Source of the DNA: Candidatus Delongbacteria bacterium
GTDB taxonomy: Bacteria > CAIWAD01
Direction: 5' to 3'
DNA length: 32,000 nucleotides
Assembly (NCBI GenBank): GCA_020634015.1
Contig: JACKCN010000001.1
Location: 813,114 to 845,113, forward strand
Under the pieces are notes generated by a model that saw only the letters and a program-made list of their open reading frames with translations, did not search any database and was not told the origin of the DNA. Shown piece after piece: positions 1 to 21,656 of this stretch; position 1 is the stretch's first letter; each line of letters begins with the position of its first letter. The translations under genes and the position numbers were made by a program.

Positions 1-237
1 ATTGCCTGCATTGTCCTCGGTGACATCCGCCTGCATGGCGACCAGATAATCCGCACCCAGCAGGGCAGCCGCCACCGCGCCAGTGTTGACGAAGTCCTGA
101 ACCTGGGGAACCACCAGATTCTTCTGGATCACACCGCTCAATTCCACTTCCGGACTCACCGGCGGCCGGCCCGCCAGGGTCGTTGTGGCTGCCAGCAGCA
201 GTCCCACTGCCGAAAGGGTCAGCAAATTCTTCATCAT
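1..237 (-). CDS. secreted hypothetical protein, N-terminal ~79 codons only (gene continues past the left edge)
   Basis: Manual minus-strand translation from tandem ATGs at 237/234 gives MMKNLLTLSAVGLLLAATTTLAGRPPVSPEVELSGVIQKNLVVPQVQDF..., open to position 1 with no stop. The N-terminus looks like a signal peptide. GAGGAG Shine-Dalgarno lies at 240-245 (complement). It is absent from the ORF track because no stop lies in the window. Confidence 0.5.
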   Translation of the reverse strand, partial: MMKNLLTLSAVGLLLAATTTLAGRPPVSPEVELSGVIQKNLVVPQVQDFVNTGAVAAALLGADYLVAMQADVTEDNAGN

Positions 238-254
238 GACTCCTCTACCCCGCG

Positions 255-291
255 GGGGGGGATTTGAAAAAACAGTCCCCCGCCCCTTGTG
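255..291 (-). terminator. Rho-independent terminator of the 1134-aa T9SS cargo gene
   Basis: The minus strand reads UCCCCCGCCC-ACAA-GGGCGGGGGA (10-bp GC stem) followed by CUGUUUUUUC. It starts about 22 nt after the TAA stop at 313-315. Confidence 0.65.
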
Positions 292-312
292 GGCGGGGGA
301 CATTCGTTCGAG

Positions 313-3300
313 TTACTTGAGCAGCACCATCTTGTGCAGATCCGTGAAGTCGTTGGCTTCCAGGCGGTAGTAATACACGCCGCTGGCCAGGGACGACCCG
401 TCGAGCACCACGTTGTGCCAGCCGGCATTCAGCTCACCGGACACCAGAGTACGCACCTGCTGGCCGAGCGTGTTGTACACGGTCAGACGCACGTTGGCCG
501 CCTCGGGCAGACCGAAGCGCAGGTTGGTGGTGGGATTGAAGGGATTGGGGAAGTTCTGCCCCAGGCTGTAGCTGGTGGGCAGGGCGTCCACTTCGGGCAT
601 GTCCAGCGACAGATCGACAGGCGTGTTGGCCCCATCACGGGCCGCCAGCACCTCCAGGTCCAGGGCATTGCTGTTGGACAGGTTCAGGCGCAGCACCGCA
701 TTCTCGGTGAGCATGCCGCCGTTGCCGGCCACGTCAATCACCCAACCATCGGCCGAGGCGTAGCTCATCACCAGAGCACCGTCGCAGCTCGCACCCAAGA
801 GGCTCTGACCGGAGTTGATCCGCAGACTGTAGGCCATCAGGCTGCCGTCCAGAGCGATCTCGACCTGGCCATCGGCCACGCTGTTCAGCACCAGGCTGGA
901 AGCGGATGCGATCAGGGCATCCTTGTGGATCTCGGGACCATCGGCGCCCGTCAGGGGCGAGGTGCAGCCCAGGCTGTAGTTGATGGCGAAAATCACCAGG
1001 TCTTCGAAGTTGATCAGGCCGTCGGGATTCGGAAGGCCGAAAGCCGTGAAGTCCGAAGTGGGAGCCACATCCAGTTCATCCGAATCACCGGCTTCCCATG
1101 TTCCAACGGTCGCACCAGGATCTGAGGTCGTACCGTAATAGCTGGACAGGGAAATCGTCAGATCCTCCATGCACACGGCACCATTGTAGCTCCCCGGACC
1201 ACCGTACCAGTCACCGAGGAAGTAATTGGTCGCACTGGCAAGGTTGCTCAGAAGCGAATCATTGGCGCAGTCGTACACAGACAGTTTGTAGTCATAGACA
1301 CCGCGGTCCGTGTAGGTATTGGCGAAGGAGGCATCCGTGTATCCCGTCGAATCCTTGTCGATGACGGCTACGAAATCGAACACGGTGCCCACCGGAGGCA
1401 ACCCGTCATTCCCCGACATCGAGACCATGTCATTGTAGTAGGGATAGCTGACTCGTTTGGAGCGATAGAGCTTGTAGCTGTCACTTCCATTTCCGCCGGA
1501 CCAGCTCAGACGAACGGCATTGTGGCGGGGAGATGCAGCCAGATTGGTGATGGGTGCTGCTGAAACGGCATCTTTGGTGAAAACCCAGCTGGCTTCGGTG
1601 CTCTCGTAGCACACATCATCCACAAGCTTCACCTGGATCGAATGACTCATGTTGTCTGACAGACCAGACACATCGGCAAGGAAGGATCCACCGGTCAGCG
1701 GGGAGCCGACGATACCTGTGATTGCATCAATCCAGGTGCCCGTGTTGTCGAAGCGATACTGAACCTTGTCCAGATCCACATTGTCGGTGGCGTCCACCAG
1801 CACGGTGAAATCGCCATCAACGCAGGTGTCCAGCGGGAACTGCGGGAATGTGGCTGCAAAGGCCGGCACAGTATCGTCCACAACCACGGTCAGAGGATCG
1901 CCCGGCAGGACGGGCACAAGGTCAAAGCCCCCGCCTGCACGCGGAGCGCGGAAATCACTGAATGTGAACTGCACCTGAGCCAACAGGTCTTCGCTGGCAT
2001 CGCCCCAGAAGTCCACCTGGAACAGTTCACCCTCGAAGCTGCTGGGTGTCGCCGCGGACTGGGCCCAGCTGACATCGATGGTGCCCCCGTTGCTGCCGAA
2101 ACCCGTGGCCGTGGCGAACAGCGAGGGATAGCCGGTTTCATTCAAGGTGATCGAATGCGCATTCAGCGCGGTCGGGAAGGTCATCATCACATGGTAGGCG
2201 AAGATCGAGCTGCCACCCAGATTGGACAGCTGCACGCTCACTCGGGTGTTGGGCTCGCAGCCCCCATTCGCCACGGAAATGTGAGTCGGATCCAGGGCAA
2301 CCATCTCGAGATGTGGGCCATCGGTGAAGTCAACTTCACCCAGACGGCCGTCTTTCAGTTCAATGCTCAGGCCGTCCAGATATCCATCGAAGCCATTCCA
2401 GTTACTGTCAGTATGAATTGAGAACGCGAGAATCTCCTCACCGGAATAGTCGTGTGCCCAAGGCATGGGTCCGGCAGAAAACTGTTCAATGGTTCCGAAT
2501 TGACCCGGAGCACGGGTCTTGTCTTCCAGATACAGCTTCGGTGTTGCCGACGCGGCATTGTCGGTTGACCAAAGACGCCAGACATTGTCTTCCTGAGTAT
2601 AGAAGGGTCCACCAGGTCCGTGCATCGGCTGGGCATATATCCGGCTGTTGTACCAGCCGGTTGATATTGGCTTGGTATAGATCTGAATCCAGAAATCATC
2701 GCCAACCGGAATGCTGTTGGGCTTCTTGGTATGGAAGGAGAAGTTCTTCAGGTCACCGATCGTTACTTCGTGATCCAGTCCGAACAGATCATCAAGAGAT
2801 ACGGCAGCGCCATGAAGATTGGGCTTCTCGTCATCACGATAGTAGGTGTAGTAGTTGATCTTGCCGCTCGCCGGTCCCTGCCAGCAGTCAGCTCCCCAGC
2901 CCGTGGGTGCTCCACTGGCCACTCGGGGCAGTTCCTCGTCGGGAACCGCGGGGCTCTGGGTGAATCGGGTGATGCCGTCGGTCATGTCCACTTCACCGAC
3001 ATCACCATTTTCGAGCGTAATGGTCAAACCATCGATCATACCGTCAAAACCGTTGTAATTGGATGCGGTCTGAATGGAAATCATCAGCACGGTTTCGGTG
3101 CGATAGTCACGCGGAGTCACGGAAGTCCAGGGCACGATGCCATCACTCAGTTGTGACAGCGTCGCATACTCACCCGATGTGGATCTGAGGGGAGTGAAGT
3201 CATAGAACAGCAGCTGATTGTTGGGACCGGAAAGGTCCGTTGTCCAGAAGCGCCAATTATCATCGTCCGAAGTGAACCCTGAGTATCCCACATCAGGTTG

Positions 3301-3717
3301 GGTTTCCAGACGGCTGTTGTACCAACCACCATTTCCCGGGGGAGCAGTGTAGATGACGATAAAGAAATCTTCATTGTCCGGAACTGAGTCTGCACTCAAT
3401 TTCTTGGTGTAGAAACTGATTGACTCCAGATCATCCATGGTGATCGGAGTGGGGCCGAACAGATCTGACAGTGTCACGATGGTCCCCGTGGGAAGATCGC
3501 CCTGTCCCACGTGGTAGTTCATCTTGTTGTTGGGTCCAGCAACCGGCCCCTGCCAACATGTGTTCCCCCAGATTCCTCCTGCTCCATCATCACTGATTCG
3601 GCGGCATTGTTCTTCGTCATATTGGAACGGAACCGCTTCTTGGTGCACAGTCGCAGCCTGGGCAACACCAGCTGCCGTCAAGCCCAGTGCCAGTACAATT
3701 CTCAATCCCCTTTTCAT
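313..3717 (-). CDS. T9SS-secreted modular surface protein: tandem unassigned beta-rich head domains plus cohesin-like/Ig/FN3/dockerin-like stalk and type-A sorting domain
   Basis: 1134-aa ORF with ATG at 3717 and signal peptide MKRGLRIVLALGLTAAGVAQA. It carries two tandem head domains of about 200 aa. FN3-like segment: PITNLAASPRHNAVRLSWSGG..SYKLYR. Dockerin-like segment: DELDVAPTSDFTAFGLPNPDGLINFEDLVIFAINY. C-terminal T9SS CTD: LGQNFPNPFNPTTNLRF...LASGVYYYRLEANDFTDLHKMVLLK. Confidence 0.9.
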   Translation of the reverse strand: MKRGLRIVLALGLTAAGVAQAATVHQEAVPFQYDEEQCRRISDDGAGGIWGNTCWQGPVAGPNNKMNYHVGQGDLPTGTIVTLSDLFGPTPITMDDLESISFYTKKLSADSVPDNEDFFIVIYTAPPGNGGWYNSRLETQPDVGYSGFTSDDDNWRFWTTDLSGPNNQLLFYDFTPLRSTSGEYATLSQLSDGIVPWTSVTPRDYRTETVLMISIQTASNYNGFDGMIDGLTITLENGDVGEVDMTDGITRFTQSPAVPDEELPRVASGAPTGWGADCWQGPASGKINYYTYYRDDEKPNLHGAAVSLDDLFGLDHEVTIGDLKNFSFHTKKPNSIPVGDDFWIQIYTKPISTGWYNSRIYAQPMHGPGGPFYTQEDNVWRLWSTDNAASATPKLYLEDKTRAPGQFGTIEQFSAGPMPWAHDYSGEEILAFSIHTDSNWNGFDGYLDGLSIELKDGRLGEVDFTDGPHLEMVALDPTHISVANGGCEPNTRVSVQLSNLGGSSIFAYHVMMTFPTALNAHSITLNETGYPSLFATATGFGSNGGTIDVSWAQSAATPSSFEGELFQVDFWGDASEDLLAQVQFTFSDFRAPRAGGGFDLVPVLPGDPLTVVVDDTVPAFAATFPQFPLDTCVDGDFTVLVDATDNVDLDKVQYRFDNTGTWIDAITGIVGSPLTGGSFLADVSGLSDNMSHSIQVKLVDDVCYESTEASWVFTKDAVSAAPITNLAASPRHNAVRLSWSGGNGSDSYKLYRSKRVSYPYYNDMVSMSGNDGLPPVGTVFDFVAVIDKDSTGYTDASFANTYTDRGVYDYKLSVYDCANDSLLSNLASATNYFLGDWYGGPGSYNGAVCMEDLTISLSSYYGTTSDPGATVGTWEAGDSDELDVAPTSDFTAFGLPNPDGLINFEDLVIFAINYSLGCTSPLTGADGPEIHKDALIASASSLVLNSVADGQVEIALDGSLMAYSLRINSGQSLLGASCDGALVMSYASADGWVIDVAGNGGMLTENAVLRLNLSNSNALDLEVLAARDGANTPVDLSLDMPEVDALPTSYSLGQNFPNPFNPTTNLRFGLPEAANVRLTVYNTLGQQVRTLVSGELNAGWHNVVLDGSSLASGVYYYRLEANDFTDLHKMVLLK
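2317..3585 (-). repeat. intragenic tandem duplication: two diverged copies of a ~200-aa domain (aa ~45-248 and ~271-467 of the 1134-aa protein)
   Basis: The copies are colinear. Each motif is given as copy 1 / copy 2: CWQGPVAGPNNKMNYH / CWQGPASGKINYYTYY; SLSDLFGP..DDLESISFYTKK / SLDDLFGL..GDLKNFSFHTKK; DFFIVIYTAPPGNGGWYNSR / DFWIQIYTKPISTGWYNSR; NWRFWTTD / VWRLWSTD; NGFDGMIDGLTITLENGDVGEVDMTDG / NGFDGYLDGLSIELKDGRLGEVDFTDG. Confidence 0.8.
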
Positions 3718-3784
3718 CTTCTGACCCTTTCATCCAGTGTGCGGATCAAGGCGTCCTTCGGGCACTTACCTGAAAGACAGATCC

Positions 3785-3810
3785 GCGCCCCCCGCAGTTG
3801 CGGGGGGCGC
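3785..3810 (-). terminator. GC-rich hairpin downstream of the 1804-aa gene (probable terminator)
   Basis: Perfect 11-bp stem gcgccccccgc / gcggggggcgc with a 4-nt loop, 17 nt after the stop at 3827-3829. The trailing minus-strand sequence GGAUCUGUCUUUC is only moderately U-rich. Confidence 0.5.
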
Positions 3811-3826
3811 GCACCTTGTTCGTGTG

Positions 3827-6800
3827 TTACTTGACCAGAACCATCTTCTTCAGGTCCTGGAAATTGCCGCTCAGCATCCGGTAGTAGTAAACACCACTGG
3901 CCAGGCTGCTGCCGTCAAACGTCACCTCATGCCATCCCGCCTGCAGGGTCGAGTTCACCACGGTGGCGACTCTCTGGCCCAGAGTATTGTAGACGGAAAG
4001 CTCCACCTGGCCGGCTTCGGGAAGCGCGAAACGCAGGGTGGTGGTGGGGTTGAAGGGGTTGGGGTAGTTCTGCTCCAGGCTGTACACCGTGGGCAGGGTG
4101 CCCATGCCGGACTCGGTGGTGCTCACGGACTGGGCATTGTTGTTCATGTCGCGTCCGTCAACCGATTCCAGATTGATGTCTCCGTAACCTGAGAAGCGCA
4201 AATGCACGATGGAACTGGCATCCAGCAGCTCGCCCTGGCCAACCACGTCAATCATGTAGCCACCGGGAACGGCATAGCTCAGGGCCAGACCGTTGTCGCA
4301 ACCGACACCACTCAGGGAGCGGTCGGTGCGCACGAAGGCACTGTAACCCATCAGCTGTCCGTCCAGCGTCAGCCGGGTTTCGTCGGCCAGCACATTCAGA
4401 CCCACGGTGGCGGCAGAAGCAACCATCGCGTCCTTGTCGAAGGCCGGCATGTCGGGCGCCGCATCAAGGGGAGAATCACCACAGCTGAGGCGATAGTTGA
4501 TGGCCATGATGATCAGGTCTTCGAAGTTGATCCGGTGATCGGGACCGGGCAGCCCAAAGGCCGAATTGTCGGAGGTTGGGGCAACATCGATCTCGTCCTT
4601 GACGGAGCCATCAGTTGTCTCACCATAATGAACGGACATTCCGAAAGTCACATCGTTGAAACATACTGACCCATCATACAGTCCAAGCCCTCCGGCCGCA
4701 GCCCAGTCACCGAGGAAGTAGTTGGTGCTGGAGGCGATGTTGCTGGAAGCAGGCGTATTGTTCGCGCAGTCGTATGCCACCAACTGGTAGTCGTAGACTC
4801 CACGTGCTGCAACCGCGTGATCGAATGAAGTCGGATCCGCAGGACTGAAGGAGGCCAGCTCGACTCCGGTAGTCGGGTCACCCACAGGGGGCAGGCCATC
4901 ATCGGGGAGCCCGGGAATGCCGTCGTTGTAGTAGGGGTAACCCGCACGAATCTTGCCATAGAGCTTGTAGCTGGTATAATTGCTGCCAGCGGTCCAGCTG
5001 AGGTGCACGACCCCGTGATCCGGAGTGGCAACCAGATTGGTCGGAGCTACCGGATTTCCCGTATCGACGACAAAGCCAAACGACTCGACATTGCTGGCAT
5101 TGCAGACGGAGTCCAGATAGCGCACATACAGTGTACGGGGTCCTTCAACCAGCAGTGCCCCGACAGTCGTGAACAATCCGCCGCTGTGATTCAGGCCGCT
5201 GAGACCCGTGATCGCATCGGTCCAGTTTGCATTGTCGAATGAATACTGCACGCGCGCGAGATCCAGATTGTCTGAGCCGCTGATGCCTGTGACCTGGATC
5301 TCCGCATTGGTCTGGTAGAATTCATTGGGCGAATCACCACAGTTCACATCGGGGAAGACCGCAGTCAACAAGGAGGGACTGACTCCATCGACTTCAACGA
5401 CGGTTGCAGCACTTTCCGTGACGGGCAACAGAATGAAACCGTTGCCATCGTGCTGGCGGAAGTCAGCCAATGTCAGGGTGATCGATGCAGCGCCGTCATC
5501 CGCAACACCGTCAAAGACGACCGTGAACAAGTCGCCGGTCTGGGTGCTTGATGCGGTCGGGCCGTAAAGTACCCAGTCCACCAGCAAGGGTGCCGGGCCG
5601 TTCAATCCCGTGGTATAGGTCAGACCCTGCCCACCCGGATTGTACAGGTTCGTGTACGCGATTGGAACCAGACTTGTCGGATAGCTGATCTGGAAATTGT
5701 AGGCGAAATAGGGCAGCATGGAAAAGTTCGGTGTGATGCCGAAAGTGACTGTCGTAGTCCCGGGACACCCCAGATCGTCCACCGCGATCCGATTGTCGCT
5801 GACGGTCTGGGTGGCGGTGAAGACATCCCCGATCCATGGCACGTAGTCAATGCCATCCGAGACGGCGTTGCCCGATCCTGTTGGATTGTAGAGGCCACTT
5901 GGTGTGTCATCGCTAGAATCCAAGGGTCCGTTGCCGGCGCCCCACCAATTGTTTTCTGCATCAATCACGGTGCCGATGGTCGCATTCCGCATGCCGTACG
6001 CGCTGTTTCCACTGATCACACAATTGGAAACCGTGACAGAAGTCGGGCTGGTATTGACGCCATACAATGTATTGCTGGCTTCGCCAATGCGGATACCCGA
6101 CGAGTACGCGCCTGTGCCACCACAACCCGTCACGACAAGGTTCGTCAACGTCACACTGCCGACCGTTGCCGGATTCGATCCGTATGTGCCCCCGTCGTTC
6201 CTGGCCTTGATCATCAACCCGGCGCCGTTGGGATCACCCGTGCCGCAATTGGTGAATGTCGAATTCTGCACGACGATGTTGTCATAGTCCGTGCGCCACT
6301 TGAGATTGAAGTCAAAACCTGCGCGGTGATTCAAGGAACCGCCGGTCCCGCTGTTCTCGACGGTCACATGATCGAAGAGAGCATTCGACAGGCGCTCAGT
6401 GTAGATGCCCTTGTTCAGATTGCCATTGAAAGTTGTATACGATACGCTCACATTGTCGAGAATCGGCTCGACACCACTGTTGGCGTCAGCGTACCACCCC
6501 ACATTGGGGCTGTCGTTGAATTCACAGTTGGTGACGACCAGACCATCGGCACTGGCAGCCGAAGCAAGCTTCAGACCCGCATTGGTGTTGTTGTTGAACT
6601 TTGATCCTGTGAGAATCAGGTCAACCAGACTGTTCAGACTGAGACCATAGTTCGAATTGCTGATCGATTCGACCTGATCAAGGGTATTGTGACTGCTGAC
6701 CACGAATCCAGTCGTGCAGCCCGTGGCCCGCACATTGGATACGATCACGCGGTTGAGGGCGTCCGCTCCGGCGCTGAGTGCCATCGCCACTCCACTCGCG

Positions 6801-9241
6801 GGAGCGACGATCGTACCGCCAGCACCAGCACCCGCGCCATCCACATGCACGACCTTGTTCACCAGCACATTCTCGACGAAGGTGCCCTGCTCCACGTTGA
6901 TCAGGTCACCGGCATCCGCCGCATCCACACCGCGCTGGATCGAACCGGAAGCGGAGGTCACGAACAGTTCGCCGGTCTTGACGCGAACCAATCCCAGAGC
7001 GCCATTGTCCAGGGCATGGGTGATCTTGTCTTCGATGGCGTTGTTCTGGGAAAGACTGGCCACACCGCCTGTCAGACCATCAAACTCGACACCGGTGGCG
7101 TCCAGGTCGCCCGCATTTGACACGAGAGTGATGTAATCCCCACTCTGTCCACTGAAGTCCAGGTCGCTCAGGCTGGTGACGGATGCCGAGGAGTTTTCGA
7201 CCGAAAGGCCTGTCACACCACCGTTGGCGTTGACACCACTTCCAATGGCCAGTTCAACCGCAGCATGCGCCGTACTGAGCGGGCTGTCCAGCACACGAAT
7301 ACCTGTCTGGGCGTTGGTGATGGGCAGGGAGGATACGGTGGCATGAGCACCGCTGCCCGCATCACTGGAATAGCCTTCATAGTTGTTGAGGAACAGGCCC
7401 ATGTCCACATTGTCGATGCTGCCACCACTGATGGTGGGCATGCCCGAAGCAGCGACATTCCAGACCTGGATTCCGATGCTTCCCGGAACCGCACCTGAGC
7501 CATTCACCGTGTTTCCAGACACAGTGTGAGTCGCGTCACTCAACGAAGCCAGCAGGATTCCGTCCCACTTGGTTTCGTTCGCATCCCAGACCGCCGTGAT
7601 GTTGTTGTTGGAAAGGGTGAGGCCGCTGGGGCTCCCCGTGAACAGATTGTGGAAGATGCCGCGACGCCGCACGGACATTGTGTTGCCGGAAATCTCCTGA
7701 TAAATCGCTGCACCTGGATTCGCTGAATGGAAGTTTCCGGTCTGCACTCCCATGCGCACATTGCTCATGACATTGTTCGTGATATGCGCGTACTGACCGT
7801 TGTAGATCAGAACGGCACCACCCCAGAAATCGATTCCCGAAGCACCATCATAGGTTCCAAGATTCTGGAACAGATTGTCTTCAATCGTGTGTCCGGATGT
7901 GGCGGGGGCCGAATAGGAGGCCCCGAAGAGTGTCACACCGAAGTAGGTGAGATTCCTGAAGATGTTTTCCTGAATTGTCACATCATCAATGTTGTTCTCG
8001 TAGGTCGTGATCCCCTCGGCGCAATGCATGTCAGCACCGAAACCGTATCCGTTGCTGGCGAAAGCAGGGTTGTCGCCATCAAGCACGAAGCCGCGAATGC
8101 TTGTGCCGTCGGCCCCTGCAGCGATGTGAAAGATTTCTCCGGAAGACGGAGCATCCACGGCCGGGACGACGATCGCTTCTGCCACGCGTGGGCCGCCATT
8201 CGGGGAAATGCCATAGTTGGGTCCGCGCAGATCGACCGAAGTACCGACAATGACATTCTCAGCATAGATTCCGGCGTCCACTTCGATGATGTCACCACTG
8301 CTGGCTGCATCGATGGCGGACTGGATCGTGAAATGGTCCGTCAGTTGCGACACATTGTGAACGGGAGGCGGCGGTCCGAAAGTGATCGTGTTCCCCACGT
8401 TGTAGAAACTGCTTGTGAACTGATTGACATAGACACTGGCACCCGCATTGCCACTGCCCACACCGAACTGCACGCTGGTGACGATAGCGTCTTCATCGGC
8501 GATCAGGTCATAGACATCCTGGATGGTCTTGCTTCCAAAAAACGTGAGTCCGGAGGTGGACATATCCGACAGAGTCATGGGATTGCTGATGGTGCCCGCA
8601 AGAACCGTGCGATCGAAGAACCACCATTTGCCGGTATTGAAGTCAACCGTTTCCGTATGCCACAGCCCATCGGATGTGCCACCGTTGAGATTGCCGGGTT
8701 CGTAGATCAGCACTTTGTCCCAGGCATTCTCACCCGTGCGGGTGGACACGCCCGTACTGCCGAAGTCTGCGGTCTTGACGCCGAGCTTGACAGAGGGAGT
8801 CACACTGACCGTTCCATTGCCCATCCAGGAGTAACTCAGGGTCATTCCCGGACCGAATGCCACATCGCCGCTGCAGTGGCCACTGGCATCGTCCTTGCGA
8901 TGTGAAATCTGGCTCTTGCCGGATCCGTTCGCGCCAATCATCAGGTGTGTTGCACCGGTATAAGTCCCGGATGGGACGGTGCCGGGAGCCGGCCCGAATG
9001 AGATCTGAGCCAGAATATCCGCATCATGTGCCGACGTGCCGACCGCGGTGGCTTCCGGATCATCCGTCAGCGTGTCGCTGACCAGATTCGTGCCCGCTGG
9101 TGGCAAGCCAGTCCCATCCGCTCGAGTATCATCCGAATACCAGCCATTGTCTCCCAATGCGGAGACATTGACTTCAGCTGCGAAGACCGAACTCGCGCAC
9201 ATCGCGAGGCTCAGCAGCCAAATCCATTTTCCATGTCTCAT
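3827..9241 (-). CDS. giant T9SS-secreted surface protein: N-terminal beta-sandwich-like domain, two right-handed beta-helix (pectate-lyase/NosD-like) modules, cohesin-like/Ig/FN3/dockerin-like stalk, type-A sorting domain
   Basis: 1804-aa ORF with ATG at 9241, AAGGA SD and signal peptide MRHGKWIWLLSLAMCASSVFA. Two beta-helix entry motifs are present: FTIQSAIDAASSGDIIEVDAGIYAENVIV and SIQRGVDAADAGDLINVEQGTFVENVLV. Both are followed by long N/G/T/S-rich repeats. The C-terminal 661 aa are colinear with the neighbouring paralog. CTD: LEQNYPNPFNPTTTLRF...LASGVYYYRMLSGNFQDLKKMVLVK. Confidence 0.9.
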   Translation of the reverse strand: MRHGKWIWLLSLAMCASSVFAAEVNVSALGDNGWYSDDTRADGTGLPPAGTNLVSDTLTDDPEATAVGTSAHDADILAQISFGPAPGTVPSGTYTGATHLMIGANGSGKSQISHRKDDASGHCSGDVAFGPGMTLSYSWMGNGTVSVTPSVKLGVKTADFGSTGVSTRTGENAWDKVLIYEPGNLNGGTSDGLWHTETVDFNTGKWWFFDRTVLAGTISNPMTLSDMSTSGLTFFGSKTIQDVYDLIADEDAIVTSVQFGVGSGNAGASVYVNQFTSSFYNVGNTITFGPPPPVHNVSQLTDHFTIQSAIDAASSGDIIEVDAGIYAENVIVGTSVDLRGPNYGISPNGGPRVAEAIVVPAVDAPSSGEIFHIAAGADGTSIRGFVLDGDNPAFASNGYGFGADMHCAEGITTYENNIDDVTIQENIFRNLTYFGVTLFGASYSAPATSGHTIEDNLFQNLGTYDGASGIDFWGGAVLIYNGQYAHITNNVMSNVRMGVQTGNFHSANPGAAIYQEISGNTMSVRRRGIFHNLFTGSPSGLTLSNNNITAVWDANETKWDGILLASLSDATHTVSGNTVNGSGAVPGSIGIQVWNVAASGMPTISGGSIDNVDMGLFLNNYEGYSSDAGSGAHATVSSLPITNAQTGIRVLDSPLSTAHAAVELAIGSGVNANGGVTGLSVENSSASVTSLSDLDFSGQSGDYITLVSNAGDLDATGVEFDGLTGGVASLSQNNAIEDKITHALDNGALGLVRVKTGELFVTSASGSIQRGVDAADAGDLINVEQGTFVENVLVNKVVHVDGAGAGAGGTIVAPASGVAMALSAGADALNRVIVSNVRATGCTTGFVVSSHNTLDQVESISNSNYGLSLNSLVDLILTGSKFNNNTNAGLKLASAASADGLVVTNCEFNDSPNVGWYADANSGVEPILDNVSVSYTTFNGNLNKGIYTERLSNALFDHVTVENSGTGGSLNHRAGFDFNLKWRTDYDNIVVQNSTFTNCGTGDPNGAGLMIKARNDGGTYGSNPATVGSVTLTNLVVTGCGGTGAYSSGIRIGEASNTLYGVNTSPTSVTVSNCVISGNSAYGMRNATIGTVIDAENNWWGAGNGPLDSSDDTPSGLYNPTGSGNAVSDGIDYVPWIGDVFTATQTVSDNRIAVDDLGCPGTTTVTFGITPNFSMLPYFAYNFQISYPTSLVPIAYTNLYNPGGQGLTYTTGLNGPAPLLVDWVLYGPTASSTQTGDLFTVVFDGVADDGAASITLTLADFRQHDGNGFILLPVTESAATVVEVDGVSPSLLTAVFPDVNCGDSPNEFYQTNAEIQVTGISGSDNLDLARVQYSFDNANWTDAITGLSGLNHSGGLFTTVGALLVEGPRTLYVRYLDSVCNASNVESFGFVVDTGNPVAPTNLVATPDHGVVHLSWTAGSNYTSYKLYGKIRAGYPYYNDGIPGLPDDGLPPVGDPTTGVELASFSPADPTSFDHAVAARGVYDYQLVAYDCANNTPASSNIASSTNYFLGDWAAAGGLGLYDGSVCFNDVTFGMSVHYGETTDGSVKDEIDVAPTSDNSAFGLPGPDHRINFEDLIIMAINYRLSCGDSPLDAAPDMPAFDKDAMVASAATVGLNVLADETRLTLDGQLMGYSAFVRTDRSLSGVGCDNGLALSYAVPGGYMIDVVGQGELLDASSIVHLRFSGYGDINLESVDGRDMNNNAQSVSTTESGMGTLPTVYSLEQNYPNPFNPTTTLRFALPEAGQVELSVYNTLGQRVATVVNSTLQAGWHEVTFDGSSLASGVYYYRMLSGNFQDLKKMVLVK

Positions 9242-9312
9242 CTCTCTGTCCTTTCAGAACAAGTGGGTCACGGTCACGGCTTGTGCACGCGACCGATCCG
9301 AGGTTTCGGGTC

Positions 9313-11361
9313 TCAGCGTACCAGGCTGATCCGGCGTGCGCTGTGGAATTCTCCGGACTGCAGCTGCAGGATGTAGACTCCGGAGGCCAGCGGACCGGCG
9401 TCCAGGCGCAGGGTCCGCTCGCCCGCGGGCAGCTGGCCGCGGAACAGCTCCAGCACCTTGCGGCCCTGGATGTCGTACAGCACCAGAGACGCCGGGCCGT
9501 CTTCAGCCAGGCTGAAACGGACCATGGTATCCGGGTTGAAGGGGTTGGGGCTCACGGGGTACAGTGCGAAGGAAGCCGGTCTGGAGGAACTCCCCGAATC
9601 CAGGGTGGGCGTCACACGGGTGTTGGCGCGATCCCTGAGTTCGATTGAGAGAATACTCGGGGGTTGGGACACGGCCAGGCTGAGCAACCGGCCCGAAAGA
9701 TCACCTCCATCCAGCGAGACCAGAGCCAGTTCCTGACCGGCAGCGGAGGGTCGCACCAGCAGGGGCCAGGGTTCCGTGTCGGATTCGCTGATGGAGAGGC
9801 CATTCTCGAGAACCAGTCGGGCTCCGAGAATGCCGTTGCCGCTGAGCCAGAGGCTCCACTGGTTGCCCTCGGCGCGCCATTCCAGAGTGGCGGGAGCCTG
9901 GGTGTCGGCCAGTTCGAGGTCTGCGCCGGATGCCGCGCTCAGCGGCGGGCCGCTGAAGGAATAGTTCATGGCGAAAAGCATCAGGTCTTCGAAATCGATC
10001 ATGTTGTCCGTCATGGGAATGCCCAGAGGGCCATTGTCGTCGCTGGGGCCGATATCCGCCTGGTTGTAATACAGGAAGTCGCCATCGGCCGTGCTGTAGG
10101 TGTTGGAGAGGCGCACCAGGTCGGCCACATGCACCGTGCCGCTGTAAGGTGTGGCGAAATCGCCCAGGAAGTAGTTGGTGGCCCGGGCGCGCGAGTCGGG
10201 GCCGATGGGCGCGGGAATCAGCGCCAGGTCGACGGCGATGGCCACATAGCGATACACGTCACGCGGCACGACCGAATCCAGCAGACTGGTGCCCGTGCCG
10301 CTGTAGACCAGGGTGAAGCCCTTGGAAATCGCCTCGTCGCGGTCGGCGGGCCAGCTGTCCATCGGGGCGATGTCATCGTACTCCGGATAGGCGGAAATGC
10401 CGCTGTCGAACCAGCCCTGGCGCCAGATTTCCACATGGCTGAAGTCCAGGTCGCCGGGCAGGCCCCAGTCCAGCTGCACGCCCTGGTGACGGGGACTGGC
10501 CGTCAGGGCGCCCACGGGAAGAGGAGGCTGGTCGTCCAGCGTGAGCTGGTCGCTGAGGGTGACCGCATTGCCGTACTGATCGCGCAGGTCGAGGTACACG
10601 GTCTTGAGGCCGTTGCCCGCCGAGAGCACGAAACTGCCCGGCAGCGGCGGGGCCGTCCAGAGCGGCGAGGGATTGGGCGGCAGAGCCGGGTCTTCGGAGT
10701 TCACCAGAGAATGCAGGCTGCCGTCTCCTCCACTGAGAGACTGGGAGATTGTGGGCAACCATGTATACGTGTCATTGCCCGGAGGTGAAATGGCTTCGAG
10801 CTCGTAGAGGTAGCCCGATGGGGGCGTGGTGTCGACCGTCAGGGTCACGGGAGACGCGTTGTCGCAGGGAATCGATTGGTTCATTTCACCACGCAGCACA
10901 GGATTGGCGATGGTGATGCTGGCCGGACCACCCAGCAGGTCCAGTGCATGGAAGGTCTGGCTGAGGATCAGGACAGGGCCGGTGGGTGTCACACCCGCCT
11001 GCTGCCCCAGCAGCGTGCCAGTGAAGGTGCGCCCGTCCACCCCGTCGTAATGGGCGTAGAAGACCTCGCTGAGGCCATCGAAGAGCAGCCCGGGATCCGG
11101 CGCACCGACCGCTGCGAGCAACGCCGGATCCCACTGCAGGGTCAGGTCAACCAGGCGGATCGGCTCCTGCGCGGTAGCCGGGACATGGTTGAGATAGACG
11201 TCCAGTTCGTAGCTGTTGGCCGCCACTTCCCAGCGGGACCACAGGCCCAGAGTCGCGCCCGGGCTGGTGTCCAGAGAATAGGCGGACCAGGCGGGACTGC
11301 CGCAGAGCAGCACGGCCCAGAGGGTGGTCCGGATGTGTCGATTGCCATGTGTGCGCATCAT
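9313..11361 (-). CDS. T9SS-secreted stalk-only paralog (cohesin-like, FN3-like, dockerin-like, type-A sorting domain)
   Basis: The ORF track gives 9313-11397. I prefer the ATG at 11361/11358 (MMRTHGNRHIRTTLWAVLLCGSPAWSAYS, signal-like) because a GGGGA SD-like element precedes it and none precedes 11397. Cohesin-like: LTLQWDPALLAAV. FN3-like: LTASPRHQGVQLDWG. Dockerin-like: ATNYFLGDF...DIGPSDDNGPLGIPMTDNMIDFEDLMLFAMNY. CTD: LYPVSPNPFNPDTMVRF...LASGVYILQLQSGEFHSARRISLVR. Confidence 0.85.
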   Translation of the reverse strand: MMRTHGNRHIRTTLWAVLLCGSPAWSAYSLDTSPGATLGLWSRWEVAANSYELDVYLNHVPATAQEPIRLVDLTLQWDPALLAAVGAPDPGLLFDGLSEVFYAHYDGVDGRTFTGTLLGQQAGVTPTGPVLILSQTFHALDLLGGPASITIANPVLRGEMNQSIPCDNASPVTLTVDTTPPSGYLYELEAISPPGNDTYTWLPTISQSLSGGDGSLHSLVNSEDPALPPNPSPLWTAPPLPGSFVLSAGNGLKTVYLDLRDQYGNAVTLSDQLTLDDQPPLPVGALTASPRHQGVQLDWGLPGDLDFSHVEIWRQGWFDSGISAYPEYDDIAPMDSWPADRDEAISKGFTLVYSGTGTSLLDSVVPRDVYRYVAIAVDLALIPAPIGPDSRARATNYFLGDFATPYSGTVHVADLVRLSNTYSTADGDFLYYNQADIGPSDDNGPLGIPMTDNMIDFEDLMLFAMNYSFSGPPLSAASGADLELADTQAPATLEWRAEGNQWSLWLSGNGILGARLVLENGLSISESDTEPWPLLVRPSAAGQELALVSLDGGDLSGRLLSLAVSQPPSILSIELRDRANTRVTPTLDSGSSSRPASFALYPVSPNPFNPDTMVRFSLAEDGPASLVLYDIQGRKVLELFRGQLPAGERTLRLDAGPLASGVYILQLQSGEFHSARRISLVR

Positions 11362-11577
11362 GAAGTCCCCGTCAGGCGTTTCGATCCGGACCGACATCCG
11401 TGATCCAGGAATGGTCGAAGTGCCTCTCGTCAGGAGAGAGAGACCCCCCGATGGCCCGGATCGCGGGTCACAGACCAGACAGATTTTCAGTGGTCAAGGG
11501 CGAGGTCCGACAAGAACAGGTGGGCGGTGCGGGAGAGTGGTGCAGCCTTGCCGGATCAGTTTTTCAGTTCGTGAATC

Positions 11578-12264
11578 TCATGGCAAATACTGGGCCGAAA
11601 CTCTGTACAGCCGTGTGGATTCGGGTGTCACAGCCTCCTGCCAGCTGGTGGCTGCCGTGCTGTCGACGAGGGACCAGGCCTCGCCAAGGAATTGCTTGCG
11701 ATAGATCCTGTAGGCATCGGCCAGATCCTGGGCATCCCAGCTCAGTTCCACGATGCCGGAGCCGTAGCTGATGTTCAGGTTGAAGCTGGTGCAGGGGGCC
11801 TCGACGGCGGAGGGTACCACAAGCACATCCAATACCTGCAGCGTGACGTCGTACATGGTCGACAGTGAGACGGCAAAGTCGATGGCGCCGGGCTGGAGGA
11901 ATGTGACCGGAACCGAGAACAGATTTCCTGATCCGGACACGGACAGCCCCGGCCCCAGAATGGCCGCATTGACGATCATCTCGGTACCGATCACATCACC
12001 GACGAAGAAGGTCGGGCCACCACTTTGCAACCACGGCCCCTGTGTGAGCTGCGCGGGCAGAAAGGTCACAAGTGCCGGGTCGAAAAGAATGCGCACATCG
12101 TAGGACTTGAGCGTGGCGCCCGGTTCCAGATCGACGTGTGCGGTGAGGATCTGTGTCTCTCCCGGTTCGGTGCATTCGGGCAACTGAAGCGATAGTGTGC
12201 CCTGGGCGGAAGCCGTACCGGCAAGGAACAGCAACAGCAGTCCAATGCGCTGCAGCAGAGTCAT
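11578..12264 (-). CDS. small secreted cohesin-like + FN3-like protein, no T9SS sorting domain
   Basis: The track ORF starts at a TTG (12285). The ATG at 12264 has a GGAGA SD 7 nt upstream and gives MTLLQRIGLLLLFLAGTASAQG (signal peptide). Cohesin-like body: LKSYDVRILFDPALVTFLP...GNLFSVPVTFLQPGAIDF. C-terminal FN3-like segment: IVELSWDAQDLADAYRIYRKQ...RLYRVSAQYLP. Confidence 0.8.
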   Translation of the reverse strand: MTLLQRIGLLLLFLAGTASAQGTLSLQLPECTEPGETQILTAHVDLEPGATLKSYDVRILFDPALVTFLPAQLTQGPWLQSGGPTFFVGDVIGTEMIVNAAILGPGLSVSGSGNLFSVPVTFLQPGAIDFAVSLSTMYDVTLQVLDVLVVPSAVEAPCTSFNLNISYGSGIVELSWDAQDLADAYRIYRKQFLGEAWSLVDSTAATSWQEAVTPESTRLYRVSAQYLP

Positions 12265-12573
12265 GGGATTCTCCGGAGTTGACAAGCGGACGAATCGGAG
12301 CAGTAGGTGGGGAGCAGTTCGGTGTTCGTCTGAATGATCGGCAAGGAGTCAATCCGTCACTGCAAAGTCAAGCTGATTATCGTCCAATGAATTTCTTCTT
12401 TGCATCACGCGGAACATGCGGGAGTCGCGGCGGCAATTGGCGCCGAAATCGTTCACAATTGGTCGCCCACTGTTCATCTTTGGTCGGCTTGGCTGCCGAA
12501 GGTCCTGCGAAGAGGGTCACGGTGTTACATAGCGGAGTTATTGTTGTCGTGGATCCACACAGGAAATCACTGG

Positions 12574-12598
12574 TTCAATTGACTTCAATCAATTCAAC
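12574..12598. promoter_or_regulatory. three direct TTCAAY hexamers at ~10-bp phasing in the divergent intergenic region (candidate regulator binding site)
   Basis: TTCAAT at 12574-12579, TTCAAT at 12584-12589 and TTCAAC at 12593-12598, with a fourth TTCAAT at 12667-12672. They lie in a ~450-bp intergenic stretch, visibly less GC-rich, between divergent surface-protein genes. Confidence 0.2.
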
Positions 12599-12738
12599 AT
12601 CCTGCGATGGACCCTATGAAGTCAGGTCGTGATGACACACAGCAACTCTTTGTCCTGGCAAACTTTTTCAATGGTCACTTTCAGGCATTTGCTGCCCCTC
12701 CAAATCGTATATAGACCGCTCGTCAGCAATGGAAGTCC

Positions 12739-14094
12739 ATGATTTCTAATTGGAGTATTGGAGGGATTTGGGTGGGACCACTGCTCATTCTGCTGCTTTG
12801 CACCCTGTTCACTTTGTCGAACCAGGCTGCCACGAGGCAGGTACCCGCTGACTTTCCGACCATCCAGCAGGCCCTGGATGCCAGCAGCGATGGGGATTCC
12901 GTGGTGGTGGCGGCAGGCATCTGGTTCGGCAGCCTTGACTTCGGGGGCCGGGATCTGGTCCTGTTGGGAAGCGGCACCAGCACGTGCATTCTTCAAGGAC
13001 TTGCAGGGCGCCTGCTTGTCTTCTCCAGGGGCGAAAGCTCCGCCGCCAGACTGGAAGGTTTCACCCTGCGCCAGGGCCAGGCGCCCACAGGGGCAAGCAA
13101 TGCGGGCGGCGCAATCCTGATTCGCGACAGTTCCCCCACCCTGCGCGGCAATCGATTCGAACTCTGCTCGGCACGCCAGGGCGGAGCGGTGGCTCTCATC
13201 CGCAGCTCAAGTCTGCTGGAAGGCAACGAGTTCGATACCAATCAGGCCTTCATGGGCGGAGCCGTGTATGTCATGGGTGGAGCGCCGGAATTGCGCAGCA
13301 ATCGGTTCCTGCACAATACGGGTGGGTTGCGCGGGTATGGGGGCGCCCTCTCATTGGAATCGACGGCGGCCCGGGTCCGGCAGAACCTGTTCGTCGAGAA
13401 TGGGGCCTTTCTCGGCGGCGCCATCAGCTGCCGCCTGTCCCCGGAAGCACTCATCGAGCGGAATACCATTGCCGGCAACGAGGCCCGCATGGGTGGTGGG
13501 CTGTATCTGGCCGCCGGTGACCCGCTGGTGCAAGGAAATCTGGTGGCCTGGTCCGCCCAGGGCGAAGCGGCCGCCAGTGCATTGATGGCTTCGCCCATGC
13601 TGGGCTGCAATCTGCACTTCGACAACGCGGGCGGCGATGGCTTTCCCGGTCAGAATCAGGGTGGAAACCGCGTGCTGGACCCACTCTGCTGCGACCCGCA
13701 AGCCGGAGACTATCGTCTGCAGCCCGGTTCACCGTGCTACAGTGCCGACTGCGGTATCCTGGGTTTCACGGACGAGAACTGCCAGGGTACGGACATCCTG
13801 CCCCATGAGATCACCATCGCCGGCTGCGACCTGCGCATTGCACCCAATCCCTTCAACGGGCGTACATGGTTGAGCATCACGGGCGATCCGGGGCGGGACT
13901 GGCGTCTGGAACTGTACTCGATCACGGGGCGCAAACTGGGCGAGCTGGCCTCCTCACGCACGGGTCACGCGCGTGACATGGCGCTGGACCCCACTCACAG
14001 GATCAATGGGCACGCGCTGGCAGCGGGCGTCTACTTCCTGCGCCTGACTCATGCGCGCGGTGAGCTGTGCCGCAAGGTGGTCTACCTCCCCTGA
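12739..14094 (+). CDS. T9SS-secreted right-handed beta-helix protein (pectin-lyase-fold-like)
   Basis: 451-aa ORF. An alternative GTG start at 12772 is preceded by GGAGGG. Signal-like PLLILLLCTLFTLSNQA. Beta-helix entry motif: FPTIQQALDASSDGDSVVVAAGIW. It is followed by repeated GGA(V/I/L) turns. C-terminal sorting domain, nt 13831-14091: LRIAPNPFNGRTWLSI...AAGVYFLRLTHARGELCRKVVYLP. Confidence 0.85.
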   Translation: MISNWSIGGIWVGPLLILLLCTLFTLSNQAATRQVPADFPTIQQALDASSDGDSVVVAAGIWFGSLDFGGRDLVLLGSGTSTCILQGLAGRLLVFSRGESSAARLEGFTLRQGQAPTGASNAGGAILIRDSSPTLRGNRFELCSARQGGAVALIRSSSLLEGNEFDTNQAFMGGAVYVMGGAPELRSNRFLHNTGGLRGYGGALSLESTAARVRQNLFVENGAFLGGAISCRLSPEALIERNTIAGNEARMGGGLYLAAGDPLVQGNLVAWSAQGEAAASALMASPMLGCNLHFDNAGGDGFPGQNQGGNRVLDPLCCDPQAGDYRLQPGSPCYSADCGILGFTDENCQGTDILPHEITIAGCDLRIAPNPFNGRTWLSITGDPGRDWRLELYSITGRKLGELASSRTGHARDMALDPTHRINGHALAAGVYFLRLTHARGELCRKVVYLP

Positions 14095-14110
14095 GGCATC
14101 TCCGCGCATC

Positions 14111-15523: not shown

Positions 15524-15578
15524 CGGCGGATCTCCTTCGAGGCGCGACGCAGGGTTGCGGAGAGCGCAATCTGCCAAT

Positions 15579-15607
15579 TTGATGTTGCAGCCAAAACAGA
15601 GTAAACT
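15579..15607 (+). promoter_or_regulatory. candidate sigma70-type promoter for the acid phosphatase gene
   Basis: TTGATG (15579-15584), 17-nt spacer, TAAACT (15602-15607), about 40 nt upstream of the ATG at 15648. This is a pattern match only. Confidence 0.25.
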
Positions 15608-15647
15608 GGCGGCCTGAGATCCAACCCGAGAGCAACAAGGAACCCCC

Positions 15648-16514: not shown

Positions 16515-16539
16515 GTTCAAGCATTTCCGGGATCTGCCG

Positions 16540-21655: not shown

Positions 21656-21656
21656 A

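Follow-up and report, generated by a model that had tools for sequence, protein, structure and literature searches.

Proteins that carry both cohesin and dockerin modules raise a simple question: which cohesin does the dockerin bind? It is posed here by four minus-strand genes (ORF calls) in the window, the 32,000-nucleotide stretch of DNA that was analysed. Three encode T9SS cargo proteins, P1, P2 and P3; the fourth encodes a small secreted protein, P4. A sequence-only reading found a cohesin-like and a dockerin-like module in each cargo and proposed that, once exported by T9SS, these paralogs could polymerise or dock with one another on the outer membrane, P4 serving as their soluble adaptor or cap. 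All coordinates below are positions on the minus strand.

Old paralogs under unrelated heads

P1 (1134 aa; 313..3717) consists of a signal peptide, two copies of a ~220-aa head domain and a stalk. P2 (1804 aa; 3827..9241) has a signal peptide, a ~1100-aa beta-helix head and the stalk, and P3 (9313..11397) is the stalk alone. The P3 ORF runs to 694 aa; M13 is the likely start, giving a protein of 682 aa.

The colinear stalk that had been reported for all three proteins is borne out. BLASTP aligns P1 residues 479-1134 with P2 residues 1151-1804 (679 aa at 43% identity, E 3e-138). The alignment of P1 with P3 (444 aa at 31% identity, E 1e-35) spans only FN3 to CTD; for the N-terminal ~285 aa of P3, colinearity with P1 and P2 appears at the profile level only, and the MSA concurs. 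DNA identity over the codon-aligned shared parts is 55% for P1/P2, 46% for P1/P3 and 42% for P2/P3, and the longest exact DNA match among them is 19 nt. P1 to P3 are thus old paralogs, as first judged, and neither a recent duplication nor an assembly artefact. The genome holds five stalk paralogs in a cluster, with one small cohesin protein on either side (two in all).

The heads are indeed unrelated. That of P1 consists of tandem copies that are 43% identical to each other (E 1e-48), and Pfam and PDB searches returned no match for it. That of P2 is a beta-helix (PF13229, E 1e-9), with weak matches to the NosD family. No CAZyme or CBM was detected at the locus.

Modules of the stalk

Sequence profiles place the modules of the ~660-aa stalk in the order cohesin(a), Ig, FN3, divergent dockerin, ~20-aa linker, cohesin(e) and type-A CTD. 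A search with standard models had been expected to recognise them. TIGR04183 did so, above its curated cut-off in all three cargo proteins (E ~6e-9); the cohesin and dockerin models of Pfam matched no module in the window, and these assignments come from family profiles, which give two cohesins and one dockerin per cargo.

In P1, cohesin(a) occupies aa 471-615 (1873..2307). A profile of the (a) subfamily only aligns with the cohesin(e) profile (hhalign 92.5%, E 4.8e-7), as does a wider cohesin(a) profile (97.3%, E 1.7e-11); the P1 module as a single sequence gives a weak 9%. The P2 counterpart (aa 1144-1287; 5381..5812) is assigned by the same subfamily alignment and by the cohA HMM, whose E of 1e-40 reflects a profile of which P2 is itself a member. 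That of P3 (aa 38-190; 10828..11286) matches the cohesin(e) profile (hhalign 64.6%, E 6e-5) and the cohA HMM (E 4e-33).

Next in P1 is the Ig-like segment (aa 616-716; 1570..1872), whose borders come from the MSA; its match to Big_7 is weak (E 0.1), as are those of its homologs (E 0.002-0.06). The FN3 module (aa 717-825; 1243..1569) carries the aromatic insertion YPYYND. It is modelled by AF2 at pLDDT 84.5 and finds FN3 structures in Foldseek (4u4b, 3mpc; E ~1e-5). It lies directly N-terminal to the dockerin, the position of an X module.

The divergent dockerin of P1 (aa 826-915; 973..1242) has two F-hand repeats with expanded loops. Of the 11 PDB matches to its family profile A2, nine are dockerins (2y3n_B, E 6e-5; 4u3s_B, 1e-3). 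Against canonical dockerins hhalign gives 97.2% and E 4e-11 with both repeats aligned, and in AF2 models the helices fall where expected. Calcium-ligand positions 1, 5 and 12 are D or N in at least 93% of sequences, and the FEDL helix is near-invariant. Loop position 3 has been lost through insertions, and calcium binding, judged from the sequence, is putative. The dockerins of P2 (aa 1502-1590; 4472..4738) and P3 (aa 403-482; 9952..10191) match the Doc HMM at E 2e-26 and 2e-25, the former with support from the MSA.

The segment that follows, described earlier simply as beta-rich, is present and is in fact a second cohesin. In P1, cohesin(e) (aa 940-1043; 589..900) is colinear with a Pfam cohesin match in the homolog P0026, and PF00963 matches many colinear homologs. 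Cohesins make up 17 of the 19 PDB matches to its profile A3 (3l8q_A, 3e-6; 2xdh_A, 3e-5). The AF2 model has nine strands, with 2xdh as the best Foldseek match (E 8e-5); the P1 module is short, ~104 aa, and CBM2 folds nearly equal cohesins in Foldseek score. In P2 (aa ~1610-1713; 4103..4414) and P3 (aa 488-603; 9589..9936) the module matches the cohE HMM at E 1e-16 and 8e-10. The type-A CTD ends each protein: aa 1050-1134 in P1 (316..570; TIGR04183 E 6.5e-9, 35.6 bits against a cut-off of 23; PF18962 E 1.4e-7), aa 1720-1804 in P2 (3830..4084; TIGR04183 E 6.9e-9) and aa 615-694 in P3 (9316..9555; 6.2e-9).

A nearly invariant chassis

The stalk is not peculiar to this locus. A search of relatives for the same stalk under other heads, as had been suggested, found 1,028 protein clusters at E<=1e-10. 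The carriers are uncultured bacteria of several phyla (Eisenbacteria, Krumholzibacteriota, Zixibacteria, Ignavibacteria and related MAGs), in which the same chassis bears many unrelated heads. By sequence, the architecture is nearly invariant across these ~1,000 clusters. A cohesin and a CTD follow the dockerin in 126/139 representatives, and the tail C-terminal to the dockerin has a median length of 239 aa (IQR 235-243).

One alternative is that the stalk is an inert spacer, its modules being relics with no binding role or its cohesin-like sandwiches binding carbohydrate in the manner of CBMs. Attachment to many unrelated heads fits this view, as do the failure of Pfam to recognise the window modules and the CBM2 domains (6qfs, 1exg) that come close after cohesins in Foldseek. 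We nevertheless regard it as very improbable. The conserved helix and calcium-ligand positions, the fixed module order and spacing, and the compensatory coupling between domains described below form a pattern foreign to relics. The stalk is widespread on unrelated cargo, then, but it is not the generic, partner-less spacer that would have undone the original proposal, for the coupling indicates that it brings its own partner, cohesin(e).

Covariation of the dockerin with cohesin(e)

In a mean-field DCA of 272 sequences (Meff 262), the coupling of dockerin column 78 to cohesin(e) column 127 comes second in strength among all pairs, at 22 sd. The pair joins dockerin helix 3 to cohesin(e) strand 3. 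Its states compensate in size: dockerin/cohesin residues are M/G in 110 sequences, I/G in 72 and V/A in 56. By parsimony the two columns changed ~30 and ~33 times, and ~23 of these changes fall on the same node. Four more dockerin-cohesin(e) pairs stand in the top 50, involving helices 1 and 3 and strands 3 and 6, positions that match the canonical cohesin-dockerin interface of cellulosomal complexes. All five stalk paralogs of this genome keep the coupling rule, with V/A in P1, I/G in P2 and M/G in P3. The alignments thus show that the dockerin co-evolves with the cohesin downstream in the same polypeptide, and the paralog-specific residue pairs imply that each dockerin best fits its own cohesin(e).

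Structure prediction agrees. AF2 folds dockerin and cohesin(e) alone at pTM 0.83, with a low-confidence linker, and FN3, dockerin and cohesin(e) together at pTM 0.85; from pTM alone we infer a predicted cis contact. The physical cohesin-dockerin contact proposed at the outset therefore gains support, but the evidence points to cohesin(e) of the same protein as the partner rather than to a freely chosen cohesin of another.

We favour, at a probability of roughly 55%, a self-locked chassis in which the dockerin is docked on its own cohesin(e), in cis or homotypically. The cargo would be exported by Sec and fold in the periplasm. T9SS would then export it and cut off the CTD, and the new C-terminus, just past cohesin(e), would be joined to the outer membrane. 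There the putatively calcium-binding dockerin would dock on its own cohesin(e), within one chain or from one copy of the protein to another, and the preceding FN3 may buttress it as the X module does for a type-II dockerin. The outcome would be a rigid pedestal that holds the Ig segment, cohesin(a) and the variable head off the cell.

The covariation would fit intramolecular and homotypic intermolecular docking alike and cannot separate them. Homotypic docking could go further: each dockerin might bind cohesin(e) of the next copy by domain swapping, head to tail, building one filament or patch per paralog, with the V/A versus I,M/G code preventing paralogs from mixing. Self-recognising, multimerising cohesin-dockerin pairs are known (PMC4611034), and AF2 monomer runs often fold swapped interfaces back in cis. 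This seems to us rather improbable, however. The dockerin-cohesin(e) linker, 13-32 aa in every case, is never so short as to force a swap; AF2 is confident of the cis arrangement; and the geometry is restricted, both partners lying beside the membrane anchor.

P4 and the apparently unpaired cohesins

Self-docking has a cost. If cis docking takes up every dockerin, it leaves no explained partner for the conserved cohesin(a) or for the P4-type neighbours. P4 (228 aa from M8; 11578..12264) has a Sec signal peptide, a cohesin (ORF aa ~29-160) that aligns with the cohesin(e) profile over 115 columns (hhalign 92.5%, E 4.8e-7), and an FN3-like C-terminus with weak support (55%). Its description as a secreted cohesin and FN3-like protein that lacks a CTD stands, if weakly for FN3: it has no CTD, no dockerin and no lipobox. 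It has an ortholog at 59% identity in L001. A small dockerin-less cohesin ORF lies within 1.5 kb at 32/70 loci; in three genomes P4-type proteins occur on both sides of the cluster of paralogs, and at many loci of other phyla the small cohesin carries a CTD.

Such conserved neighbours, the clustering of five stalk paralogs between two of them and the presence of two cohesins and one dockerin per cargo favour cross-docking among the paralogs. So do a weak coupling of dockerin column 78 to cohesin(a) column 35, the homolog of the coupled (e) site, and the precedent of Ruminococcus bromii Amy4, a multimerising protein with a cohesin and a dockerin that bind each other (PMC4611034). A mixed scaffold of this kind is still unlikely, in our judgement, and promiscuous cross-docking is not supported. 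The sole strong coupling lies within one polypeptide and is paralog-specific, and AF2 already satisfies the dockerin in cis. Between dockerin and cohesin(a) there is no coupling beyond background (maximum 0.94, against 0.92-0.99 for negative-control domain pairs), and cohesin(a) of the window paralogs does not follow the rule. Small cohesins show no covariation with neighbouring dockerins. Nor is P4 expected at the surface: a Sec signal peptide with neither lipobox nor CTD implies periplasmic retention by default, and its role as a soluble surface adaptor or cap is putative.

In another reading, P4-type proteins would cap or chaperone the cargo dockerin, or some other stalk element, in the periplasm ahead of its export by T9SS, as chaperones do for pilus subunits. 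That P4 is a cohesin with such export signals, encoded at both ends of the cluster, fits. We consider this quite improbable: the CTD-bearing small cohesins of other phyla would be surface-anchored, the missing covariation counts here too, and the idea is purely inferential. On the favoured reading, cohesin(a) and the P4-type proteins are unpaired cohesins and the sole candidates for lateral links between proteins.

Comparison with known systems

The sequence-only reading knew of no characterised cellulosome-style assembly anchored by T9SS. A cellulosome-like one had already been inferred in silico in Ca. Stygibacter (Cloacimonadota), with a CTD-anchored scaffoldin (Williams et al. 2021; PMC8542988). 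In both systems a MAG of the FCB group encodes cohesin and dockerin proteins, and a T9SS CTD is present, in Ca. Stygibacter on the scaffoldin. Ca. Stygibacter, however, keeps the classical division of labour, with C-terminal dockerins on enzymes and a separate scaffoldin bearing tandem cohesins and CBMs, whereas every cargo here combines a dockerin of its own with two cohesins and a CTD, with neither CAZymes nor CBMs detected.

Amy4 of the R. bromii amylosome is likewise a secreted protein with both a cohesin and a dockerin, and the two recognise each other (PMC4611034). This GH13 enzyme comes from a Gram-positive bacterium; its modules are canonical and recognised by Pfam, and its complex is anchored through a sortase-linked scaffoldin. 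The stalk, in contrast, has a divergent, adjoining pair beside a T9SS CTD, in a fixed chassis of ~1,000 clusters whose heads are non-enzymatic or unassigned.

In full-length profile matches, the stalk dockerin comes closest to chains of type II/III X-dockerin dyads of cellulosomal scaffoldins (such as 4u3s_B, 4wi0_B, 2b59_B and 5k39_B). As in these dyads, the dockerin comes right after an Ig/FN3-type module, and AF2 packs the stalk modules as one unit (pTM 0.85). An insertion in the first calcium loop is common to the stalk dockerin and 4u3s_B; the 12-residue insertion in loop 2 (GPTxDxxxxGxP) is confined to the stalk family. The dyads bind a cohesin of another protein and so anchor the cellulosome, whereas the co-evolving cohesin of the stalk lies later in the same chain. 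The best structural match of that cohesin, 2xdh (TM 0.56), is a non-cellulosomal cohesin of Archaeoglobus fulgidus, from an archaeal protein that lacks a T9SS CTD; its identity to cohesin(e) is ~10%.

Results

A conserved stalk carries unrelated heads

Four minus-strand genes stand head to tail in the window, separated by 71-180 nt: P4 (11578-12264; 228 aa), P3 (9313-11397), P2 (3827-9241; 1804 aa) and P1 (313-3717; 1134 aa). P1, P2 and P3 share a stalk of six parts: cohesin (a), an Ig-like segment (b), an FN3 domain (c), a divergent dockerin (d), a second cohesin (e) and a T9SS type-A sorting domain (CTD). The sequence-only reading had described this stalk as colinear in the three proteins, and BLASTP bears it out. 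P1 and P2 are 43% identical over 679 aa (E 3e-138), and P1 and P3 31% identical over 444 aa (E 1e-35), from FN3 to the C-terminus; the N-terminal part of P3 matches the other stalks at the profile level only. The same reading took the genes for an old family. Codon-aligned DNA of P1 and P2 is 55% identical, and no exact match exceeds 19 nt, so the two are indeed old paralogs; these figures rule out an assembly artefact or a recent duplication.

The heads are as unrelated as had been supposed: P1 carries a tandem unknown domain, P2 a beta-helix (PF13229), and P3 is headless. The P1 head (2308-3645) consists of two tandem copies of a ~220-aa domain, 43% identical to each other (E 1e-48) and rich in invariant Trp, Gly and Asp, with the motifs CWQGP, WYxSR and GFDG. 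Neither a Pfam search nor a comparison of a head-repeat profile with the PDB found a relative. Among the homologs whose heads were sampled, these are either beta-helices or dark to Pfam, and P1-P4 and nine sampled homologs yielded no match to any CAZyme or CBM family.

The expected sorting domain, TIGR04183, is matched in P1, P2 and P3 at 35.6-35.7 bits against a curated cut-off of 23, and N-terminal signal peptides can be read from their sequences. By these two features the three proteins are T9SS type-A cargo, their secretion itself being a prediction. P4 carries a Sec signal and has neither a lipobox nor a CTD; for want of a CTD it does not qualify as T9SS cargo, and by default its location would be the periplasm.

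The cluster extends past the left edge of the window (1-313 and beyond). Its continuation is found in JAGQHO010000040.1, from a 97%-identical assembly, at 6785-13126, and in a related contig, L001, at 13432-19763. Downstream of P1, both hold two further stalk paralogs, one of 1038-1048 aa with a head that has no Pfam match and the other of 787-801 aa, and a second cohesin protein of 230 aa. The full cluster therefore comprises five stalk cargo proteins bracketed by two small cohesins. Perfect GC-rich hairpins follow the stop codons of P2 (3784-3811, 12 pairs) and P1 (275-301, 11 pairs) on the minus strand, the latter trailed by a T run; they may serve as terminators or attenuators between paralogs.

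Cohesins and a dockerin that Pfam misses

The cohesin-like and dockerin-like patterns read from the sequence had been expected to match PF00963 and PF00404. The module assignments stand and extend to segment (e), but neither Pfam family matches P1-P4 at E<=1. In these proteins Pfam and NCBIfam together pick up nothing beyond the CTD and the beta-helix, and phmmer finds no PDB match for the P2 stalk. The identities emerge from family profiles instead.

A homolog search yielded full-length stalk relatives (P0002-P0008), and PF00963 is found in colinear homologs, among them the protein P0026 (E 1e-5), a protein from locus L071 (E 5e-9) and many precomputed matches. P0026 is colinear with the stalk from FN3 to the CTD, and its Pfam cohesin match, at residues 725-815, falls on segment (e); what had been called only a further beta-rich segment is thus a cohesin. 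A search with the (d)+(e) alignment returned 72 more proteins, many annotated with PF00963 and PF13860. Segment (e) combines sequence homology to solved cohesins with a nine-stranded beta-sandwich. Its profile (A3) matches 3l8q_A (E 3e-6) and 2xdh_A (3e-5) in the PDB, with cohesins making up 17 of 19 matches. Nine strands appear in its AF2 model. Foldseek ranks 2xdh, a cohesin from outside cellulosomes, first for this model (E 8e-5, TM 0.56), ahead of the cohesins 2vo8, 2w1n and 5n5p, with CBM2 domains scoring close behind.

Segment (a) is also a cohesin: in hhalign its profile matches the (e) family at 97.3%, and the window subfamily alone does so at 92.5% (E 4.8e-7). This link runs through the (e) family profile, since the shallow (a) profile has no direct match to cohesins in the PDB; the P1 segment by itself reaches 9% against the (e) family. 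The N-terminal 120 aa of P4 match the same family at 92.5% (E 4.8e-7), and its C-terminus is FN3-like, weakly, at 55%. BLASTP between P4 and P3 is not significant, and the only PDB match of P4 is a chance one to a Fab. Segment (c) is FN3 by AF2 and Foldseek, and segment (b) has a weak Big_7 match.

The dockerin is divergent. PF00404 matched one of 45 family modules, at E 0.12, and the NCBIfam model dockerin_GC gave E 0.036, under its cut-off. Compared with the PDB, the (d) family profile finds 2y3n_B (E 6e-5) and the XDoc chains 4u3s_B and 4wi0_B (1e-3) and 5k39_B (3e-3); nine of its 11 matches are dockerins. Aligned by hhalign with a handful of canonical dockerins, the profile scores 97.2% (E 4e-11) over both F-hand repeats, and AF2 places a helix after each loop. 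Segment (d) thus holds a tandem pair of ~22-residue F-hand segments, homologous to those of solved dockerins, in each of which a Ca loop leads into a helix. Dockerins coordinate Ca through D or N at loop positions 1, 3, 5, 9 and 12. Here positions 1, 5 and 12 are 93-100% D/N in both repeats and position 9 is so in about half, and position 3 is shifted by insertions particular to this family, ~7 residues long in loop 1 and 12 in loop 2. We conclude that (d) is a divergent dockerin subfamily missed by Pfam. One 2234-aa protein in the representative library, P0110, has four copies of the divergent dockerin, as against a single copy elsewhere.

The chassis is widespread

An exhaustive profile search of 1.84 billion cluster representatives retrieved 1,398 proteins at a threshold of E<=1e-3, of which 1,028 pass E<=1e-10. 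A cohesin and a CTD follow the dockerin in 126 of 139 representatives, in which the tail past the dockerin has a median length of 239 aa (IQR 235-243). Of the 100 representatives with enough length for a verdict, 86 have exactly one further cohesin upstream. When one genome was scanned for each species, 150 relatives were confirmed; the labels of their MAGs are Eisenbacteria, Krumholzibacteriota, Zixibacteria, Ignavibacteria, Fibrobacteraceae, Latescibacterota, Cloacimonadota and Bacteroidota.

Arrays of two to five stalk paralogs are common. Of 70 loci, 32 have a small cohesin ORF (<450 aa) that lacks a dockerin no more than 1.5 kb away, with few exceptions on the same strand. A CTD is present in roughly half of these neighbours and absent, as in P4, from the other half; in other phyla the equivalent of P4 carries one. 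P4 could act as a cap or as a chaperone, or could simply be hitch-hiking. At loci L006-L081 the small cohesins with a CTD measure ~270-380 aa and those without ~190-390 aa, and some loci have both kinds.

The dockerin co-evolves with the next cohesin of its own protein

Which cohesin does the dockerin bind? We collected 293 tails running from the dockerin (Doc) through cohesin (e), here Coh(e), to the CTD, drawn from cluster representatives, homologs and ORFs in fetched loci. Mean-field DCA was run on the 272 left after near-duplicates were removed (Meff 262, 309 columns). Dockerin column 78 and Coh(e) column 127 form the second-strongest of ~46,000 pairs, with a score of 5.3, 22 sd above the mean. 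Column 78 is position 14 of dockerin repeat 2, right after the near-invariant FEDL in helix 3; column 127 is the first residue of Coh(e) strand 3 in the AF2 model. The residues found there compensate in size: M/G in 110 tails, I/G in 72, V/A in 56 and V/G in 10, with all other states at four or fewer each. Mapped by parsimony onto a UPGMA tree that leaves them out, the two columns require ~30 and ~33 changes, 23 of which share a node, so the signal is not one phylogenetic split. The five paralogs of this genome fit the pattern: P1 (V908 and A962) and the 787-aa protein are V/A, P2 and the 1048-aa protein I/G, and P3 M/G.

Four more Doc-Coh(e) pairs are in the top 50 (40-166, 81-168, 37-178 and 9-139), mapping to helix 1 positions 17 and 20, helix 3 position 17, and cohesin strands 3 and 6. 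In cellulosomal complexes, dockerin helices 1 and 3 sit on the cohesin 8-3-6-5 sheet, and the four pairs agree with that face. Controls bear out that the signal is specific: Doc and the CTD contribute one of the top 50 pairs, and Coh(e) and the CTD two. The predicted contact between dockerin and Coh(e) is both co-evolving and matched paralog by paralog.

The other cohesins show no such relationship. In a set of 184 sequences that includes cohesin (a), the pair 78-127 again ranks second (14 sd), and the best coupling of cohesin (a) to the dockerin scores 0.94, equal to the 0.92-0.99 of negative-control domain pairs. At the homologous position of cohesin (a) the association is faint and fails in the window's own paralogs, and no residue rule links the small neighbouring cohesins to adjacent dockerins. 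These results bear on the earlier proposal that the paralogs cross-dock into a mixed scaffold, an idea suggested by the presence of both module types in each cargo protein. For that to happen a dockerin would have to leave its matched partner; the couplings support pairing only within the same protein species and lend none to the mixed scaffold, which is the less likely reading.

The linker from Doc to Coh(e) is always 13-32 residues long (median 21). For P1 residues 826-1043, spanning the two modules, AF2 gives pLDDT 83.6 and pTM 0.83, with the linker at pLDDT ~50; a pTM this high on a floppy tether suggests that the dockerin is placed confidently against the cohesin. That dockerin (d) binds a cohesin is thus indicated indirectly, by this model and by the inter-domain covariation. 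Foldseek never matched the dockerin fold: FN3 matches swamp the three-module model and beta-sandwiches the two-module one. The former, FN3 with Doc and Coh(e) (P1 717-1043, 71-sequence MSA), reaches pLDDT 84.5 and pTM 0.85. FN3 is the module immediately before the dockerin, and the PDB entries that (d) matches best over its full length are XDoc chains. In type II X-dockerin dyads the X module packs on the dockerin and adds to cohesin binding.

Discussion

The analysis shows a dockerin subfamily fused both to a cohesin of its own and to a T9SS sorting domain, in a fixed chassis reused in ~1,000 protein clusters. With the module identities and this chassis established, we propose the following model. 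The cargo would leave by Sec, fold, cross the T9SS and lose its CTD. Its dockerin, Ca-dependent and buttressed by FN3, would then clasp the membrane-proximal Coh(e) of the same protein, giving a rigid pedestal that displays the Ig segment, cohesin (a) and the head.

The main alternative, and an exciting one, is homotypic docking, head to tail, between copies of the same protein. The covariation and the monomer AF2 run fit docking in cis and homotypic docking alike. Were the dockerin to reach Coh(e) of another copy, each paralog could build its own filament or two-dimensional patch, with the V/A versus I,M/G code preventing mixing and the orphan cohesins, (a) and those of the P4 type, cross-linking or capping the assembly. 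The outcome would be a T9SS-anchored, S-layer-like coat, widespread in uncultured FCB phyla; we think such a coat unlikely.

Cohesin-dockerin pairs are the trans-acting glue of cellulosomes in Firmicutes, where dockerin-bearing enzymes are recruited in trans to a multi-cohesin scaffoldin, usually with a CBM. With no CAZyme or CBM detected in P1-P4 or the sampled homologs, and a sole supported pairing within the same protein species, the present cluster does not qualify as a cellulosome-like complex. In structure, XDoc dyads and the A. fulgidus cohesin come nearest. Among characterised systems the nearest analogue is R. bromii Amy4, in which the cohesin binds the protein's own dockerin (PMC4611034). 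In Cloacimonadota, a cohesin/dockerin system of cellulosome type, its scaffoldin anchored by a CTD, has been proposed in silico, and it differs from the present one in keeping the classical split between enzyme and scaffoldin (PMC8542988). The literature open to search yielded no account of a Doc-Coh-CTD cassette.

If our reading is correct, a large block of 'hypothetical' sequence in dark-matter genomes gains an annotation. How are T9SS cargo held and spaced at the cell surface? A self-locked, Ca-dependent pedestal would be one answer and a homotypic assembly unit another, and the compensatory pair, dockerin helix-3 position 14 and the first residue of cohesin strand 3, is open to direct mutation. 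The chassis may also offer a natural set of orthogonal pairs for surface display.

Several features of the locus deserve mention. Window positions 1-4804 are 97.4% identical to a second assembly of the same organism (JAGQHO010000040.1), and the two diverge after ~4804, inside P2 and just upstream of its dockerin, where the comparison is with positions 1-2220 of that contig. The last ~230 aa of the P2 counterpart are 96-100% identical and the part upstream 50-70%. This mosaic reflects either recombination at a cassette boundary, that is, head swapping, or an assembly chimera. GC content is 54-60% over the P1 and P2 region (1001-9000) as against 63-68% in the flanking genes (13001-32000), which could indicate foreign origin or a composition effect of the proteins. 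NCBI labels conflict at one locus and leave the phylum of the source uncertain: the P1 protein (P0001) is filed under 'Candidatus Cloacimonetes bacterium' and the identical P4 protein (P0249) under 'Calditrichaeota bacterium', and a P4 homolog bears the label 'Candidatus Delongbacteria'.

The remaining genes of the window are ordinary and have no visible link to the stalk cluster. They encode an aldehyde dehydrogenase, a DUF5677 protein, an alpha-amylase, a 765-aa CotH+LTD protein (19293-21590, minus strand; CotH kinase domain, E 2e-52, and lamin-tail domain), a thioredoxin-like protein, a TPR protein and glycosyltransferases. Transcribed divergently from the cluster is a gene on the plus strand (12739-14094) for a 451-aa beta-helix protein (PF13229) in which no CTD was detected; its position and orientation beside the cluster are the same in L001.
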